A program made the translations under genes and the position numbers. From the IMG/VR virus record IMGVR_UViG_2657245521_000007: a stretch of DNA of 4,647 nucleotides; one strand, written 5' to 3'. The stretch comes from a virus. Lineage: Duplodnaviria; Heunggongvirae; Uroviricota; Caudoviricetes. Shown here piece by piece: positions 1 to 4,647 of the stretch. The notes below the pieces were generated by a model. The model ran no database searches. It was not told where the DNA came from and was given only the letters and a program-made list of their open reading frames with translations. Positions within the stretch are counted from its first letter, which is position 1. Every line of letters begins with the position of its first letter.

Positions 1-2
1 AT

Positions 3-53
3 GCCAGCGAACAGCTGGAGGCGTTGGAGGCATACTTCGAAAATTTTGCGTAA
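3..53 (+). CDS. Possible 3' end of a CDS that starts beyond the left window edge; product unknown
   Basis: Frame 3 is open from the window edge to TAA at 51-53 and translates as ASEQLEALEAYFENFA with E. coli-like codons (GAA, CAG, CTG, GCG). Too short to identify. The position matches where lambda carries a gene upstream of bor on the same strand. Confidence 0.2.
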   Translation, partial: ASEQLEALEAYFENFA

Positions 54-218
54 ACAGAAATAAAGAGCTGACAGAACTATGTTCGAACAGTGGATCCTTC
101 GCATCTGACATACATTAATAAATATTAACAATATGAGATTTCAACTCATTGTTTAGGGTTTGTTTAATTTTCTACACATACGATTCTGCGAACTTCAAAA
201 AGCATCGGGAATAACACC

Positions 219-512
219 ATGAAAAAAATGCTACTCGCTACTGCGCTGGCCCTGCTTATTACAGGATGTGCCCAACAGACGTTTACTGTTCAAAACAAAC
301 CGGCAGCAGTAACACCAAAGGAAACCATCACCCACCATTTCTTCGTCTCTGGAATTGGGCAGAAGAAAACTGTCGATGCAGCTAAAATTTGTGGCGGCGC
401 AGAAAATGTTGTTAAAACAGAAACCCAGCAAACATTCGTAAATGGATTGCTCGGTTTTATTACTTTAGGCATTTATACTCCGCTGGAAGCGCGTGTGTAT
501 TGCTCACAATAA
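219..512 (+). CDS. bor: Bor outer-membrane lipoprotein (serum-resistance moron, Iss homologue)
   Basis: 97-aa ORF with a lipoprotein signal peptide and lipobox LITGC. The sequence is near-identical to phage lambda Bor as I recall it. It is on the strand opposite the lysis genes, as in lambda, with an AT-rich upstream region (about 111-180). Confidence 0.92.
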   Translation: MKKMLLATALALLITGCAQQTFTVQNKPAAVTPKETITHHFFVSGIGQKKTVDAAKICGGAENVVKTETQQTFVNGLLGFITLGIYTPLEARVYCSQ

Positions 513-522
513 TTGCATGAGT

Positions 523-540
523 TGCCCATCGATATGGGCA
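523..540. terminator. Palindromic hairpin between convergent bor and Rz (possible bidirectional terminator or mRNA 3' stabiliser)
   Basis: Perfect palindrome TGCCCAT-CGAT-ATGGGCA (7-bp stem) lying between the bor stop (510-512) and the Rz stop (544-546). No clear U-tract on either strand, so any terminator function is weak or factor-dependent. Confidence 0.25.
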
Positions 541-543
541 GCT

Positions 544-1005
544 CTATCTGCACTGCTCATTAATATACTTCTGGGTTCCTTCCAGTTGTTTTTGCATAGT
601 GATCAGCCTCTCTCTGAGGGTGAAATAATCCCGTTCAGCGGTGTCTGCCAGTCGGGGGGAGGCTGCATTATCCACGCCGGAGGCGGTGGTGGCTTCACGC
701 ACTGACTGACAGACTGCTTTGATGTGCAACCGACGACGACCAGCGGCAACATCATCACGCAGAGCATCATTTTCAGCTTTCGCATCAGCTAACTCCTTCG
801 TGTATTTTGCATCGAGCGCAGCAACATCACGCTGACGCATCTGCATGTCAGTAATTGCCACGTTCGCCAGCTTCAGTTCTCTGGCATTTTTGTCGCGCTG
901 GGCTTTGTAGGTAATGGCGTTATCACGGTAATGATTAACAGCCCATGACAGGCAGACGATGATGCAGATGAGCAGAGCGGAGATAATCGCGGTTAATCTG
1001 CTCAT
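544..1005 (-). CDS. Rz: Rz spanin, inner-membrane subunit (i-spanin)
   Basis: 153-aa ORF with an N-terminal transmembrane segment and a charged, coiled-coil-like periplasmic domain. Length and sequence match lambda Rz as recalled. ATGA overlap with the R stop. Confidence 0.9.
603..785 (-). CDS. Rz1: Rz1 spanin, outer-membrane lipoprotein subunit (o-spanin), embedded in the +1 frame of Rz
   Basis: 60-aa ORF entirely inside Rz in a different frame. It has a signal peptide with lipobox VVGC and a proline-rich mature part (PPPPP, PPP). A strong Shine-Dalgarno AAGGAG sits 7 nt upstream of the ATG. Matches lambda Rz1 as recalled. Confidence 0.85.
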
Positions 1006-1478
1006 ACCTCAATCTCTCTGACCGTTCCGCCTGCTTCTTTGAATTTTGCAATCAAACTGTCAACCTTATGCTCGAACTGACCATAACCAGCACCCGGCAG
1101 TGAAGCCCAGATATTGCTGCAACGGTCGATTGCCTGACGAATATCACCGCGATCAATCATCGGTAAAGCGCCACGCTCTTTAATCTGCTGCAATGCCACT
1201 GCGTCCTGGCTATTGGGGGAAAAGTCTTTCAAACCAAGCTGTTTACAGTAAGCATCCCACCACCGGGAAAGAATCTGGTAGCGTCCAGCAGCCGTTGATT
1301 TAAGTTTTGGGTTTAGCGTGACAAGTTTGCGAGGATGATCGGAGTAATCAGTGAATAGCTCACCACCTACAATAACGTCGTAGCCGTGATTGCGGGTTGG
1401 CTGTCGCCCGTTATCCGTTCCTTCTGACCACGCCAACATATCGAGGAAAGCTTTACGCTGAGGATTAAGATTTAGCAT
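1002..1478 (-). CDS. R: Endolysin, lambda R-type lytic transglycosylase
   Basis: 158-aa ORF. From residue 7 onward ([20 protein letters not shown]..., [19 protein letters not shown]...) it is near-identical to lambda R as recalled, with a divergent N-terminus. It sits between holin and Rz as in lambda. Confidence 0.92.
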
Positions 1479-1782
1479 TTTTCACCCCTGTCAGTCGTTC
1501 CCAGAAGTATGTCAGTGCAACCGAACCCATCGCACCACTAATCCCCGCTGTCGCGAGAATCATGTAAATACTGAATCCACTTTCGATACTGTTCAGGCCA
1601 CCAATAACACCGGTGAATCCCGACACCACTATCTGAGCCAAAGCATTTATCCAGCTCCACGTTGCTTTACTCTGCTTCACATCTATCAGGTAGCGGACCA
1701 GACCGCCCCAACCTGCGATGATCAGCAAAACGAGCCAGAACGCTCCGGCAAGGCTCTCTTTTTCGTGCATATGAATAGCCAA
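1465..1782 (-). CDS. Holin (three predicted transmembrane segments, class I topology; not lambda S-like in sequence)
   Basis: Small ORF immediately upstream of the endolysin, overlapping it by 14 nt. It has three hydrophobic segments (about residues 10-32, 42-64, 70-95) and a charged C-terminal tail ([11 protein letters not shown]). The ORF-track start at 1782 is TTG; an in-frame ATG lies at 1770 (MHEKESL...), so the true start is ambiguous. Confidence 0.75.
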   Translation of the reverse strand: MAIHMHEKESLAGAFWLVLLIIAGWGGLVRYLIDVKQSKATWSWINALAQIVVSGFTGVIGGLNSIESGFSIYMILATAGISGAMGSVALTYFWERLTGVKNAKS

Positions 1783-1884
1783 TGTTTCGCCGCCGACAAA
1801 AGGCCGGGACGTTAAATGTCAGAAATCAGGCTCACGGGGTAATTTAACGACAAAGCACGGAGTTGATGCTCCCCGCAAGCCTGG

Positions 1885-1910
1885 AATAAAAAAGCCAGCA
1901 TGTAGCTGGC
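1885..1910 (-). terminator. Intrinsic terminator, minus strand (second of two in the Q-S spacer)
   Basis: Minus-strand RNA reads GCCAGC-UACAU-GCUGGC (6-bp stem, 5-nt loop) followed directly by UUUUUUAUU. Stem at plus 1894-1910, A-run at 1888-1893. Confidence 0.45.
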
Positions 1911-1987
1911 AACAGAGGGTTAAGCAATATCAACTCAACAGCTGAAGACACCCTGGCTGGGGTACGTTGGAAGGATACTCACCGCCC

Positions 1988-2022
1988 AGAAACAGAAAAG
2001 CCCAAGGCTTTAAACCTCGGGC
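1988..2022 (-). terminator. Intrinsic terminator, minus strand (first of two in the Q-S spacer; tR'-like)
   Basis: Minus-strand RNA reads GCCCGAGG-UUUAAAG-CCUUGGGC (8-bp stem including one G.U pair) followed by UUUUCUGUUUCU. It lies about 70 nt downstream of the Q-like stop codon. Confidence 0.4.
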
Positions 2023-2079
2023 TTGAATTTGGATTACTGCCAGTGCGTACAACATTGGCAAAATATCAGATTTACATAA

Positions 2080-2108
2080 AATATATGATTTTTAATCCAG
2101 TTTTGCAA
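2080..2108 (-). promoter_or_regulatory. Candidate sigma-70 late promoter (pR'-like) overlapping the 3' end of the Q-like gene
   Basis: On the minus strand, TTGCAA (-35, plus 2103-2108), a 17-nt spacer, then TATATT (-10, plus 2080-2085). Its position just upstream of the two terminators and the lysis genes mirrors lambda pR'/qut/tR'. Hexamer match only; not tested. Confidence 0.3.
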
Positions 2109-2781
2109 TATCTTGCTGTGAAAATGTGGTCTTTTGTTTTGAACGTGTTTTCGTTAAAAGCAATAAAGCTTGGCTATCAAGCTGTAGAAAAATGTGCTTC
2201 ATTGCAACCCAGCGTTCAGTAAATGTCTCAGACCAGTTTTTTGATGTCACTCCCACCAGTGATGCCAACTCCTGGTATTCATAGGTCTTACGCCCTGCCA
2301 GCTCGTTCTTCACATCCTGTGCCGCCAGCCAGATCAACTTCTTCAAACGTTCCAGTGTCTTACCTGCAATTTTCCTGGTACCCAACAGAGTCTTAAACTC
2401 GCTCCATGCCCACTGCGTTATGGTGACCTGATGTTCCCAGCGAACACTTTCGCTGTAACTCCACAGCAACCACGCTTTCTGATGTTCTTCGAGAGACAGA
2501 ACCGCGCGGCGCCATGATGATGTTGAGAACTCGATCGGACTGACCAGGGCAATGGATGAGCCTTTCGCCCGTGACTGCTTACCGGGTATCGGCGGATTAT
2601 CCAGCGTTATTAACCTGCCGGTCACTTCATCCAGAATGCGCGGTTTCTTTCGTTTGTATGTACCGGTATCAAATTGCGCATGCTCCTGCCAGGCCACCAA
2701 CTGCCCTTTCGTCGCACCACTCAGATCGGCGGTGGCCACCATGAGCTGCTCGCGAACAAACTGTAAATATTGGGTATTCAT
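2092..2781 (-). CDS. Putative late-gene antiterminator (Q-like), family unassigned
   Basis: 229-aa ORF in the position Q occupies in lambdoid phages: directly downstream of rusA/ylcG and upstream of a promoter-terminator spacer and the lysis cassette. ATGA overlap with the ylcG stop. The sequence is not lambda Q (no cysteines, so no zinc finger; Trp-rich). The call is by position and size, not by recognised homology. Confidence 0.55.
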   Translation of the reverse strand: MNTQYLQFVREQLMVATADLSGATKGQLVAWQEHAQFDTGTYKRKKPRILDEVTGRLITLDNPPIPGKQSRAKGSSIALVSPIEFSTSSWRRAVLSLEEHQKAWLLWSYSESVRWEHQVTITQWAWSEFKTLLGTRKIAGKTLERLKKLIWLAAQDVKNELAGRKTYEYQELASLVGVTSKNWSETFTERWVAMKHIFLQLDSQALLLLTKTRSKQKTTFSQQDIAKLD

Positions 2782-2918
2782 GCGGCCGCTCCTTTCAGTG
2801 TTTTGGCGTAATTTTTCAGTATTCGGTAATCAGTCACGACAGAACCGGAAAACCGGTACAACCGCAGGCGCATCCAGCGAAGGCGGAGGTGTTCTGTGAT
2901 ATAAGATTCAAACGTCAT
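2778..2918 (-). CDS. ylcG: Small protein YlcG-like (46 aa), not in the ORF track
   Basis: My translation of the minus strand gives [50 protein letters not shown] overlap with the rusA stop (ATG at 2918-2916) and ATGA overlap with the Q-like start. Size and position match ylcG of the E. coli DLP12 prophage (between rusA and the Q gene). Confidence 0.5.
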
Positions 2919-3277
2919 TCGCCCTCCAGTTCTGTAATGGTCAGCTCCAGCTTCCCGCCTTTAACGATCGGCATCTTCACAACGCGGTAATCAACAACCT
3001 GCGCATCATCCAGCCAGAAACCTGCTTTAGTAAGTGCGTCAAAAGCGGCTTTTTGCAGATTATCCAGGTCACGGCGACGGCGATCCGGCATGTGGCACTC
3101 AATGCGGATTTTCACTGGCATAGCCAGGCCGATATCCAGCATGGAGCCTTTGATGATTCGGGCGACGTTATCGCGGTATGCTTGCCCCTCTGCGCTGATG
3201 TGCGTGCGCCCGCGATTATGGCGGTAATAGCGATTATTGCTCGGAGGCCAGGGTAATGTGATGCTGTAGGTATTCAC
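2915..3277 (-). CDS. rusA: RusA Holliday-junction resolvase (crossover junction endodeoxyribonuclease)
   Basis: 120-aa ORF starting [24 protein letters not shown]..., near-identical to E. coli prophage RusA as recalled. ATGA overlap with the ybcO stop. Confidence 0.93.
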
Positions 3278-3564
3278 GCCTTAATAACCCCCTCTTTCAG
3301 CCAGATAACCTGTGTTCTCGCCATACCTTCCAGCGCGCATTCTTTTGCATATCCAGCGTCAACAAAATGCGTGCGACGGTCGATCTCGTCGTGACAGGCA
3401 GAACATGCAATGGTGGCAATAAGGTCTGGCAGTTTAATACCGGTGCCGCACAATCCAGCCAGCCGGATATGTGCCAGTACAGACGTTTCAGAATTGCCAT
3501 TACATACGCCAGGGATTCTTACCTGGCATTCCCGACCACGCGCTGCTTTTCTCAAATCAGCCAT
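3274..3564 (-). CDS. ybcO: YbcO-like DUF1364 protein (Cys-rich, putative metal-binding nuclease)
   Basis: The ORF-track start at 3603 is a TTG. The in-frame ATG at 3564 ([14 protein letters not shown]...) is preceded by a strong Shine-Dalgarno AAGGAGGAG and gives 96 aa, the size of DLP12 YbcO. Conserved cysteines: CQVRIPGVC and CSACH. Confidence 0.85.
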
Positions 3565-3727
3565 GACTCCTCCTTGCTGCCAGTCGCAACCATTTTTTAT
3601 CAACCAGGCTGGCGGTATATCCGAGCAGTGTTGGTATTTCGGATGGCTTCAGCTCAGGCTTACGCTTACGACGATTTGGTACTCTGTAGATGTGTCCGTT
3701 CATGACACGAATAAGCGGTGTAGCCAT
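3557..3727 (-). CDS. ninE: NinE-like small protein (56 aa), not in the ORF track
   Basis: My translation of the minus strand gives [56 protein letters not shown], matching lambdoid NinE as recalled. The ATG overlaps the ybcN stop (TAATG) and the 3' end overlaps the ybcO start by 8 nt. Confidence 0.75.
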   Translation of the reverse strand: MATPLIRVMNGHIYRVPNRRKRKPELKPSEIPTLLGYTASLVDKKWLRLAARRSHG

Positions 3728-4182
3728 TACGCCTCCTGCTTGTCGCGCAGCAGCTGGAACTCGCAGCTCTGCGGAATAGTCAGGTTGCAGCCAATATTCA
3801 TCGCCCAGGCTTCAACCTTACACAGGAAGACATACATCTCTCCGGTATCAAGATCGGAGGTATGGCGTAACGACTGGATAGTAGTGATTTCGCCGGTTAC
3901 GACATCAACCAGGTCCTTGGTTTCATAACCGAGGTATGTGTGTTTGAGAGCATCTTTTACCCATGCTGCGGTAGCGAACGATTTCCCCCTGCTGATGAGG
4001 TATTCACTGATTTCGCTGTACCACATATGGCTGAGTGCATTCTGGGAAAGACTGCGTTTCTCTCGCCACGGTTTAAGCACCATGCGAAAGCATTTGCCTT
4101 CCTCCAGATAAGGCTGGATCTGCTGGCCGATAGCGGTGAAGTTGCCGCGATGTAATTTGATGCCGTCTTGTGAGAGGTTCAC
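3727..4182 (-). CDS. ybcN: YbcN-like DUF1367 protein (reported DNA base-flipping protein)
   Basis: 151-aa ORF starting [19 protein letters not shown]..., matching DLP12 YbcN as recalled. The start codon is GTG at 4182-4180, preceded by Shine-Dalgarno GGAGGT. Confidence 0.88.
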
Positions 4183-4280
4183 GCTTCACCTCCGCAGAGC
4201 TCAAACGCTAGATGCAAAGAATTGCAGGTGCATTTCTGCATCTGTGAAGGGAGAAGAGAGTTTGGATTGTATGTGCGCAT
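4179..4280 (-). CDS. ylcH: Small ORF, YlcH-like (33 aa), not in the ORF track
   Basis: Minus-strand ATG at 4280-4278 with GGGGA 6 nt upstream; translation [33 protein letters not shown]; stop TGA overlaps the ybcN GTG start (GTGA). Size and position (directly upstream of ybcN) match ylcH of DLP12. Support is weak because the ORF is short. Confidence 0.4.
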
Positions 4281-4303
4281 AAACGTCCCCGTTTAGCGCA
4301 GAA

Positions 4304-4332
4304 GTCACCGGAGTTGTTCAGGCTCCGGTGAC
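4304..4332. terminator. Perfect 10-bp stem-loop in the 22-bp gap between the rusA operon and the IS2 end
   Basis: GTCACCGGAG-TTGTTCAGG-CTCCGGTGAC (10-bp perfect stem, 9-nt loop). On the plus strand it is followed by AU-rich ATAATTATG; on the minus strand by UUCUG. It could be a nin-region tR-type terminator or a protein-binding palindrome. Confidence 0.3.
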
Positions 4333-4354
4333 ATAATTATGCCGTGTTGATTTC

Positions 4355-4647
4355 TAGACTGGCCCCCTGAATCTCCAGACAACCAGTATCACTTAAATAA
4401 GTGATAGTCTTAATACTAGTTTTTAGACTAGTCATTGGAGAACAGATGATTGATGTCTTAGGGCCGGAGAAACGCAGACGGCGTACCACACAGGAAAAGA
4501 TCGCAATTGTTCAGCAGAGCTTTGAACCGGGGATGACGGTCTCCCTCGTTGCCCGGCAACATGGTGTAGCAGCCAGCCAGTTATTTCTCTGGCGTAAGCA
4601 ATACCAGGAAGGAAGTCTTACTGCTGTCGCCGCCGGAGAACAGGTTG
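4355..4647 (+). mobile_element. IS2 insertion sequence (IS3 family), orfA-proximal end, continuing beyond the right window edge
   Basis: Terminal sequence TAGACTGGCCCCCTGAATCTCCAGACAACC... followed by the IS2 orfA leader and ATG, matching the IS2 end as recalled. The element boundary is uncertain by a few bp. Only about 290 bp of the 1.3-kb element is in the window. Confidence 0.9.
4446..4647 (+). CDS. insC: IS2 transposase OrfA (InsC), 5' part; CDS continues beyond the window
   Basis: Translation [67 protein letters not shown] matches IS2 InsC as recalled (helix-turn-helix region). Shine-Dalgarno GGAG lies 6 nt upstream of the ATG. Confidence 0.92.

Follow-up and report, generated by a model that had tools for sequence, protein, structure and literature searches.

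A mosaic lysis cassette in a DLP12-type prophage

How, and how long ago, did a lysis cassette come to pair a holin unlike that of phage lambda with an endolysin, spanins and a Bor lipoprotein that closely resemble lambda's, and where in the DNA do the two parts meet? The cassette lies in a 4,647-nucleotide stretch of viral DNA, all of which we analysed and which we call the window; a first-pass annotation had read it as modular exchange at a gene boundary, with the recombination junction inside the 5' end of the endolysin gene R. Lambdoid phages are pervasively mosaic: their holin, endolysin and spanin types reassort, and sharp joints fall at gene borders, a picture associated with Juhala, Hendrix and Casjens. 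The phenomenon is thus already known, as standard lambdoid mosaicism, and the cassette itself is annotated in about a thousand complete Escherichia coli genomes.

All phage genes of the window except bor, its sole plus-strand phage gene, run on the minus strand. Upstream of the cassette these are ybcN/ninB (4182-3727), ninE (3727-3557), ybcO (3603-3274), rusA (3277-2915), ylcG (2918-2778) and a gene for a 229-residue Q antiterminator (2781-2092; Pfam PF06323, 9.6e-97). A spacer of about 310 nt separates Q from the holin gene. It holds a putative late-promoter/terminator region at 1894-2108 on the minus strand, placed by consensus scan only, with a pR'-like promoter at 2108-2080 and terminator-like hairpins at 2024-1998 and 1910-1894; the scan returned eight terminator-like sites against 2.2 expected. 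An Rfam scan of the whole window found no family, and a tRNA scan found no tRNA genes between Q and the holin gene, in contrast to phage L. The cassette follows in the gene order of lambda S-R-Rz-Rz1 and bor (NC_001416, 45186-46752). Open reading frames, Pfam and PDB entry 1AM7 bore out the coordinates and calls that the first-pass annotation had given for the holin, R, Rz, Rz1 and bor.

The nearest complete genome, that of E. coli 7CC, is 99.9% identical over window positions 87-4354 and has the block in the DLP12 locus, flanked by ybcK/emrE/ybcL/ybcM on one side and ybcV/ybcW/nohD on the other; L013, a contig from IMG/VR, matches the window without a difference between 2978 and about 92. Against the DLP12 prophage of K-12 (essD-rrrD(ybcS)-rzpD/rzoD-borD), identity is 94.5% over 4354-2788 (ylcH/ybcN to ylcG) and 97.1% over 1004-99 (rzpD to beyond borD), whereas the whole Q-holin-R block between them (2787-1005) is replaced. 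The borders of the replacement are the gene boundaries ylcG/Q and R/Rz, with rzpD homology resuming exactly at 1004. K-12 has quuD, nmpC, a 71-residue holin (essD) and a 165-residue lysozyme (rrrD) in this block, the last two presumably of S21/R21 pinholin/SAR character. As a whole, the window is in all probability the late-lysis operon of a DLP12-type lambdoid E. coli prophage, assembled from modules with different histories. Among Stx phages, a survey of lysis cassettes predicted SAR-endolysin/pinholin cassettes in almost all, and the accessible part of that survey does not mention a cassette of the window type (PMC8136144).

A holin outside the lambda S family

The holin gene (1770-1465, minus strand) encodes 101 residues from an ATG at 1770, which is also the PGAP start; an in-frame TTG at 1782 is an alternative start that would add MAIH. 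Its product matched Pfam PF16083 (LydA, or Phage_holin_3_3; 3.9e-21, 75.4 bits against a cutoff of 28.4) over profile positions 2-78 of 78, and its homologues in PM43 and in a Klebsiella phage likewise match this family. Kyte-Doolittle hydropathy gave three hydrophobic segments in a layout like that of S105, with a short charged C-terminal tail, and the gene overlaps R by 14 nt.

That this holin is unrelated to lambda S, as the first-pass annotation had it, was confirmed at several levels. BLASTP against lambda S found no similarity (E = 8.2), and a profile-profile comparison with hhalign gave a probability of 0.6%, from alignments that were small and shallow and may miss a very remote homology. 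The window holin matched neither TIGR01594 nor PF05106, the families to which lambda S belongs and against which S itself scored 2.6e-37 and 2.4e-30, respectively. The Met-Lys-Met dual start of S is absent from the window holin, and the overlap with R is 17 nt in lambda as against 14 nt here. NCBIfam supplied no useful name for either the holin or R, with a single sub-threshold match to CrcB.

The relatives of the window holin lie elsewhere. In tblastn searches it shared 84-88% amino acid identity with holins of Klebsiella prophages and 72-73% with the gene 13 products of the Salmonella phages ST64T, ST160, PS3, L and PM43, and it is the 'gene 13' type of holin found in L, ST64T and PS3. The P22-like Salmonella phages L, ST64T, PS3 and PM43 carry a 13-19-15-Rz1 module with a holin of the same family and length class. 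Their holins have an upstream MAKRM dual start, which supplies an ATG and basic residues; at this place the window has a TTG and MAIHM. Gene 13 is a genetically defined holin gene through the amber mutation 13-am43 of phage L; L and P22 have different genes 13 and 19 (PMC8022706).

LydA of phage P1 is the founder of PF16083, and the window holin lies above the gathering score of that HMM; P1 LydA was absent from the tblastn matches of the window holin at E <= 1e-3, and membership in the LydA family is assigned here from the Pfam HMM. The two proteins also differ in form and setting: P1 LydA is a class II holin with two transmembrane helices (PMC9025707), as against three hydrophobic segments in the window holin, and P1 lydA lies apart from lyz and is paired with a separate antiholin, LydB, whereas the window gene overlaps R. 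When lyz of P1 was replaced by lambda R, lysis depended on LydA, so a LydA-family holin can release lambda R (PMC9025707); the window holds this same pairing in nature. Only by analogy with phage L gene 13 and P1 LydA, then, would the window gene act as a holin, with timed hole formation and endolysin release. Whether this copy works is not assured from its sequence. Its holin and that of L013 have N60, where all seven other homologues compared (including those of 7CC, O157, UTI89, PM43, Klebsiella and SX45) have I60, and its R has four private substitutions (L69I, R78C, K89N and A139V).

The holin module begins shortly before its gene. Its upstream edge falls at 1771-1815 on the minus strand when the window is set beside Oki, pCE, UTI89 and O157: cassettes with different Q-holin spacers turn homologous about 43-45 nt before the holin ATG.

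The junction lies at the holin stop codon

R (1478-1002, minus strand) encodes a lambda-type soluble lytic transglycosylase of 158 residues. As no Pfam model matches either lambda R or window R, we identified it through the structure of lambda lysozyme, PDB 1AM7 (E = 1.7e-99 across residues 1-158). Glu19, which we take to be catalytic, is kept within the motif AWSEGT, and the N-terminus has no hydrophobic (SAR) or signal stretch; from lambda biology, R would be expected to depend on a holin that makes large holes. Residues 7-158 match lambda R at 145 of 152 positions. Among the first six residues, all of which had been described as different from lambda, four differ (2, 3, 4 and 6).

The start codon of R and its first four codons are read, in another frame, from the tail of the holin gene; the 14-nt overlap at 1478-1465 on the minus strand reads ATGCTAAATCTTAA. 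Lambda has its holin and endolysin genes overlapping in the same relative frame. With these codons inside the holin tail and a GGGG Shine-Dalgarno-like motif at 1488-1485, 8 nt upstream of the R ATG, translation of R is probably coupled to that of the holin. The Salmonella gene 13 module has the same 14-nt overlap, with the endolysin ATG in a holin tail of the form GGGrTGAAAAATGC. Its endolysin, present in PM43 and ST64T, is an unrelated M15-type protein of 132 residues (a weak Peptidase_M15_4 match, below the Pfam cutoff) that nevertheless starts at the same ATG position.

With the window and lambda held in the R reading register, identity to lambda was 21-34% upstream of position -14 from the R ATG, 54% from -13 to -1, 64% in the 14-nt overlap, 67% from +14 to +19 and 84-85% from +20 onward. 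Over the same intervals identity to PM43 was 63-83%, 92%, 64%, 33% and 22-24%, a mirror image of the lambda profile that follows from PM43 having the same holin family and an unrelated endolysin. The two profiles cross at 1467-1459, that is, at the holin stop codon and R codons 4-7. An abrupt shift against two different relatives at a gene border (from 31% to 85% for lambda, from 92% to 22% for PM43) is the signature of a novel joint, and the nucleotide alignment to lambda by which the earlier reading was to be checked indeed has a sharp breakpoint, rising from 31-34% upstream of R to 85% from +20.

Searches that did not rely on this register gave a similar position. Megablast homology to lambda begins at window position 1461, which corresponds to lambda 45510, immediately past the S stop codon; BLAST matches to the holin alone end at 1480-1472, and matches to R alone begin at 1473, 1469 or 1461 depending on the upstream holin. 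Holin-family homology stops at the holin stop codon (1467-1465), and that to the R family takes over at R codon 5-7 (1466-1459). The junction interval 1467-1459 on the minus strand is also supported by consensus sequences drawn up for each group among 61 unique loci from IMG/VR. The proposal that it lies inside the R 5' end, at or within the 14-nt overlap, is thus upheld, with lambda and PM43 bracketing the interval.

Divergence from lambda changes within R

Downstream of R, the Rz i-spanin gene (1005-544, minus strand; 153 residues; Pfam PF03245, 9.9e-54) starts at an ATGA that overlaps the R stop codon. The Rz1 o-spanin lipoprotein gene (785-603, minus strand; 60 residues; PF06085, 2.9e-20) is wholly embedded in Rz in the +1 frame, the two-component embedded spanin architecture. 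Beyond them lies bor (219-512, plus strand), encoding a serum-resistance lipoprotein of 97 residues (PF06291, 1e-30); homology to lambda runs on past it to window position 99.

All of these had been called near-identical to lambda. For the proteins this is right: R is identical at 147 of 158 residues, Rz at 150 of 153, Rz1 at 59 of 60 and Bor at 96 of 97. It does not extend to the DNA of R, which is only 88% identical overall, as compared with 98.7% for Rz and 98.9% from Rz to bor. Near-identity at the protein level in fact hides three DNA strata, with identities to lambda of 84.7% (1461-1200), 93.9% (1199-970) and 98.9% (969-100), or divergences of 15.3%, 6.1% and 1.1%. A model with one rate change was preferred over uniform divergence from lambda (2*deltalnL of about 67), which places the start of the lambda-near-identical tract near the R/Rz boundary and not at the S/R overlap. 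A second rate change, separating the step at 1199 from that at 969, had modest and only suggestive support (2*deltalnL of about 11, before correction for the search over positions).

Coding constraint does not account for these steps, because the differences in R are mostly synonymous (39 synonymous and 7 non-synonymous codon differences from lambda over codons 7-158) and the non-coding stretch 100-218 has just two of the listed mismatches to lambda. The strata are therefore best read as differing in age and not in constraint, and the excess of synonymous changes indicates that R has been under purifying selection. By the same reading, the R sequence that abuts the holin, whose DNA is only about 85% identical to lambda's, would come from a different and older R lineage, and a recent exchange with lambda-like DNA would have taken place near the R/Rz boundary.

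Comparison with other cassettes of the same holin adds a further layer. The window is 97-98% identical to them in the holin gene, 87-91% in R from 1464 to 1200 and 94-98% after 1200. A search of 5,426 E. coli genomes for a donor of the divergent R 5' allele matched only the window's own lineage (7CC), the next best allele being 91% identical. The R 5' segment of the window thus appears to be a local patch from an unsampled R allele, brought in either through conversion inside R or through a second exchange at this joint; its left edge can be placed only within 1478-1452.

The R 5' end is linked to the holin type

To survey the joint we used window positions 1330-1610 as a probe against the same 5,426 complete E. 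coli genomes. It was fully covered in 1,008 of them, or about one in five, including O157:H7 strains and UTI89, and the R half alone was found behind another holin in about 1,800 further genomes. The only isolated phage with the cassette, PhiR47_2, carries the joint, its R being split by a frameshift in the deposited sequence.

Across 77 classifiable IMG/VR loci, the N-terminal hexapeptide of R predicted the upstream holin type without exception: MVEINN accompanies lambda S (39 loci), M(Q/L)NLN(P/L) the LydA-type holin (26 loci) and MQ(V/A/E)LN(S/P) a second holin of PF05106, with just 25% identity to S (12 loci). This linkage reaches into R and then fades. Among 61 unique IMG/VR sequences, R nucleotides 19-279 were 96.0% identical within holin groups against 88.3% between them, while nucleotides 280-470 were 95.6% identical within groups against 95.0% between. 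R accordingly behaves as a shared homologous linker whose 5' end travels with the holin and whose 3' end is freely exchanged. The cassette matters little beyond illustration; what it offers is chiefly the correction that protein near-identity to lambda masks DNA strata, together with this population picture, in which R 5' is tied to holin type, R 3' is freely recombined and one start codon in the holin tail serves unrelated endolysins.

R occurs behind three holin types or more, namely the LydA type, lambda S and the second PF05106 holin, and all of these joints fall at R codons 1-7. The LydA-type holin, for its part, is joined to no fewer than three unrelated endolysins. These are the R type, the M15-like 132-residue protein of PM43 and ST64T, and a GH108 endolysin that occurs both in Klebsiella phage ST101-KPC2phi6.3 and in E. 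coli SX45; a Hafnia phage also has a GH19 protein listed together with its holin. Residues 1-6 of R vary even in a cassette type that has no overlap (the O113 type), which suggests that they are dispensable; this would explain why joints are tolerated there.

Origin and working of the cassette

We favour a reading in which the holin module, from about 1815 to 1465, runs as far as the holin stop codon, 14 nt into R, so that R would take its ribosome-binding site, ATG and first four to six codons from the holin tail, with true R homology from codon 5-7 onward. The most likely origin of the joint is a single, ancient event of illegitimate or micro-homology recombination within N-terminal codons that R can spare; since then the joint would have been passed on in one piece, together with an R 5' allele of its own. 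The lambda-like 3' end of R and the segment from Rz through Rz1 to bor would have entered later, by homologous recombination within R and at the boundary between R and Rz. The holin/R joint, on the comparisons above, appears to be an old, widespread and inherited allele combination and not the product of a recent exchange with lambda. Modular exchange at a gene boundary is in this sense a fair description, as the mosaic junction that separates a non-lambda holin from lambda-type R, Rz, Rz1 and bor is real; what finds no support is the implied picture of lambda's own genes recombined onto the foreign holin at that point, given the 84.7% identity of R beside the joint.

The most direct alternative is a recent crossover inside the S/R overlap between lambda, or a near-identical phage, and a phage with another holin, after which everything past R codon 7 would be lambda DNA. 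The point at which lambda homology begins, the first base after the lambda S stop codon, is just where such an event would leave it, and the downstream proteins (95-99% identical to lambda) and the Rz-bor DNA agree with a close lambda source. The 260 nt of R beside the joint do not: their divergence is mostly synonymous, all 15 unique LydA-type cassettes of the IMG/VR sample carry non-lambda R 5' alleles, and outside the window's own lineage the 5,426 genomes hold no allele more than 91% identical to its R 5' end. We consider this account very improbable in general, and for the window the divergence step inside R refutes it. We find it just as hard to credit that nothing recombined at the joint, the holin being a very diverged vertical descendant of an S-like ancestor and the R N-terminus varying because it is unconstrained or constrained by the holin frame. 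Several features could be read that way: both Pfam families bear the name 'holin superfamily III', both holins have three hydrophobic segments in similar layout, both genes overlap R in the same relative frame and in a similar GGxGTxxAAxATG context (7 of 13 bases upstream of the ATG match), and R residues 1-6 are variable in the overlap-free cassette type as well. Against this, neither sequence nor profile comparison found similarity between the window holin and lambda S, identity rises from random to 85% within less than 10 nt, and unrelated endolysins are attached to the same holin (73-88% amino acid identity) in phages of Salmonella and Klebsiella, which is module exchange.

A third account shares more with our preferred one. 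In it the joint keeps being maintained or formed anew, with the holin tail (Shine-Dalgarno motif, ATG and four codons) acting as a portable start adaptor, and the window's R 5' allele arrived in a second, independent exchange. The fall in identity between the window and its same-holin relatives on passing from the holin into R, with recovery after 1200, fits such an exchange, as does the use of the same ATG and overlap by the unrelated PM43 endolysin. The patch is equally explicable, however, by homologous gene conversion within R from an unsampled allele; its left edge is no finer than the interval given above, and the best allele found, at 91%, is no donor. We regard this account as unlikely. 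The narrower idea it contains, that the 3' tail of this holin family is a portable translation-start adaptor into which unrelated endolysins plug at the same nucleotide and stay translationally coupled, we offer tentatively, as a possibility well short of probable. If true, it would explain both why joints cluster within a few bases and why the R hexapeptide is a perfect marker of the holin partner, and the divergent R 5' patch of the window would be a record of a second exchange at the same spot.

The cassette would work along lines suggested by its protein families. Q-dependent late transcription would read through the terminators into the cassette, so that holin is made; the holin would accumulate in the inner membrane, trigger and form large holes, releasing cytoplasmic R to cleave the murein, and Rz/Rz1 would then disrupt the outer membrane.

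A fis junction at the window edge

At the far end of the window, positions 1-89 are 100% identical to core E. coli DNA, namely the 3' end of dusB, the spacer that separates it from fis and the opening 11 nt of fis itself, after which the window continues into prophage DNA distal to bor. This junction had no match in complete E. coli genomes, GTDB representative genomes or JGI metagenomes. It may stem from a genuine rearrangement, from cloning (a BamHI end joined to a GATC end left by Sau3AI) or from chimeric assembly. At this point the window has ATGTTCGAACAGTGGATCC and its closest relatives have GGGAATACAGTGATGATCC. A BamHI site not present in those relatives is formed at the junction, which would also truncate fis.

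Replacement of the Q-to-R block

Relative to the DLP12 prophage of K-12, the entire Q–spacer–holin–R block (window 1005-2787) is swapped, with K-12 carrying quuD, nmpC::IS5, essD and rrrD in its place. Homology to DLP12 stops at 2788, the ylcG/Q border, and restarts at 1004, in the first bases of Rz; both borders of the replacement are therefore gene boundaries.

The same holin-R cassette recurs in PhiR47_2 (L002 3623-4098), the sole isolated phage carrying it in the searched collection. R of PhiR47_2 is annotated as two ORFs, divided by a frameshift near R nucleotide 270; either the sequence contains an error or the endolysin is inactive. Some cassettes, those of E. coli OkiPb01694 (L009) and plasmid pCE-O153H30-A (L012), have a DUF3800 gene between Q and holin, and in these the annotation at the bor position is iss; one of these copies is on a 44.8-kb circular record labelled as a plasmid, which may be a phage-plasmid or else a prophage that has not integrated.

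Holin start and private substitutions

We examined the start region of the LydA-type holin. In homologues from Klebsiella and Salmonella it reads GGAGGTG-N5-ATG GCA AAG/AAA CAT/CGT ATG, encoding MAKHM or MAKRM, a dual start with a basic residue that resembles S107/S105, the dual-start products of lambda S. The corresponding region of the window (1770-1800, minus strand) reads GGCGGCG-N5-TTG GCT ATT CAT ATG, or MAIHM, without the lysine, and the holin of E. coli UTI89, which has the same cassette type, is without an in-frame upstream start. Judged from these sequences, the upstream start of the window holin has decayed, and the E. coli lineage may have lost an antiholin isoform.

Holin codon 60 (1591-1593) encodes Asn in the window and in L013, an IMG/VR contig, and Ile in all seven other homologues compared. 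R has four private substitutions (L69I, R78C, K89N and A139V, at codons 69, 78, 89 and 139). Together with Asn60, these could indicate relaxed selection in this prophage copy, or could mark a lysis-timing variant.

Edges of the window

At window 1-99, dusB-fis DNA is fused to the prophage on the distal side of bor, and the two meet at an ACA(GTG) micro-homology. Positions 1-89 match core E. coli sequence at 100% identity, covering the 3′ end of dusB, the spacer between dusB and fis, and the opening 11 nt of fis. The joint produces a GGATCC site where the nearest relatives, E. coli 7CC and L013, have GTGATGATCC, and as read it would cut fis to MFEQWILRI*. This junction was absent from the complete E. 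coli genomes, GTDB representatives and JGI metagenome contigs searched. The joint may stem from a rearrangement, from BamHI/Sau3AI cloning or from chimeric assembly.

At the other edge, 4355-4647 is what we take to be the left terminus of an IS2-like element. Strain 7CC is without this element at the matching site. It begins TAGACTGGCCCCCTGAATCTCC, extends into its first ORF and is inserted immediately upstream of the ylcH/ybcN region.
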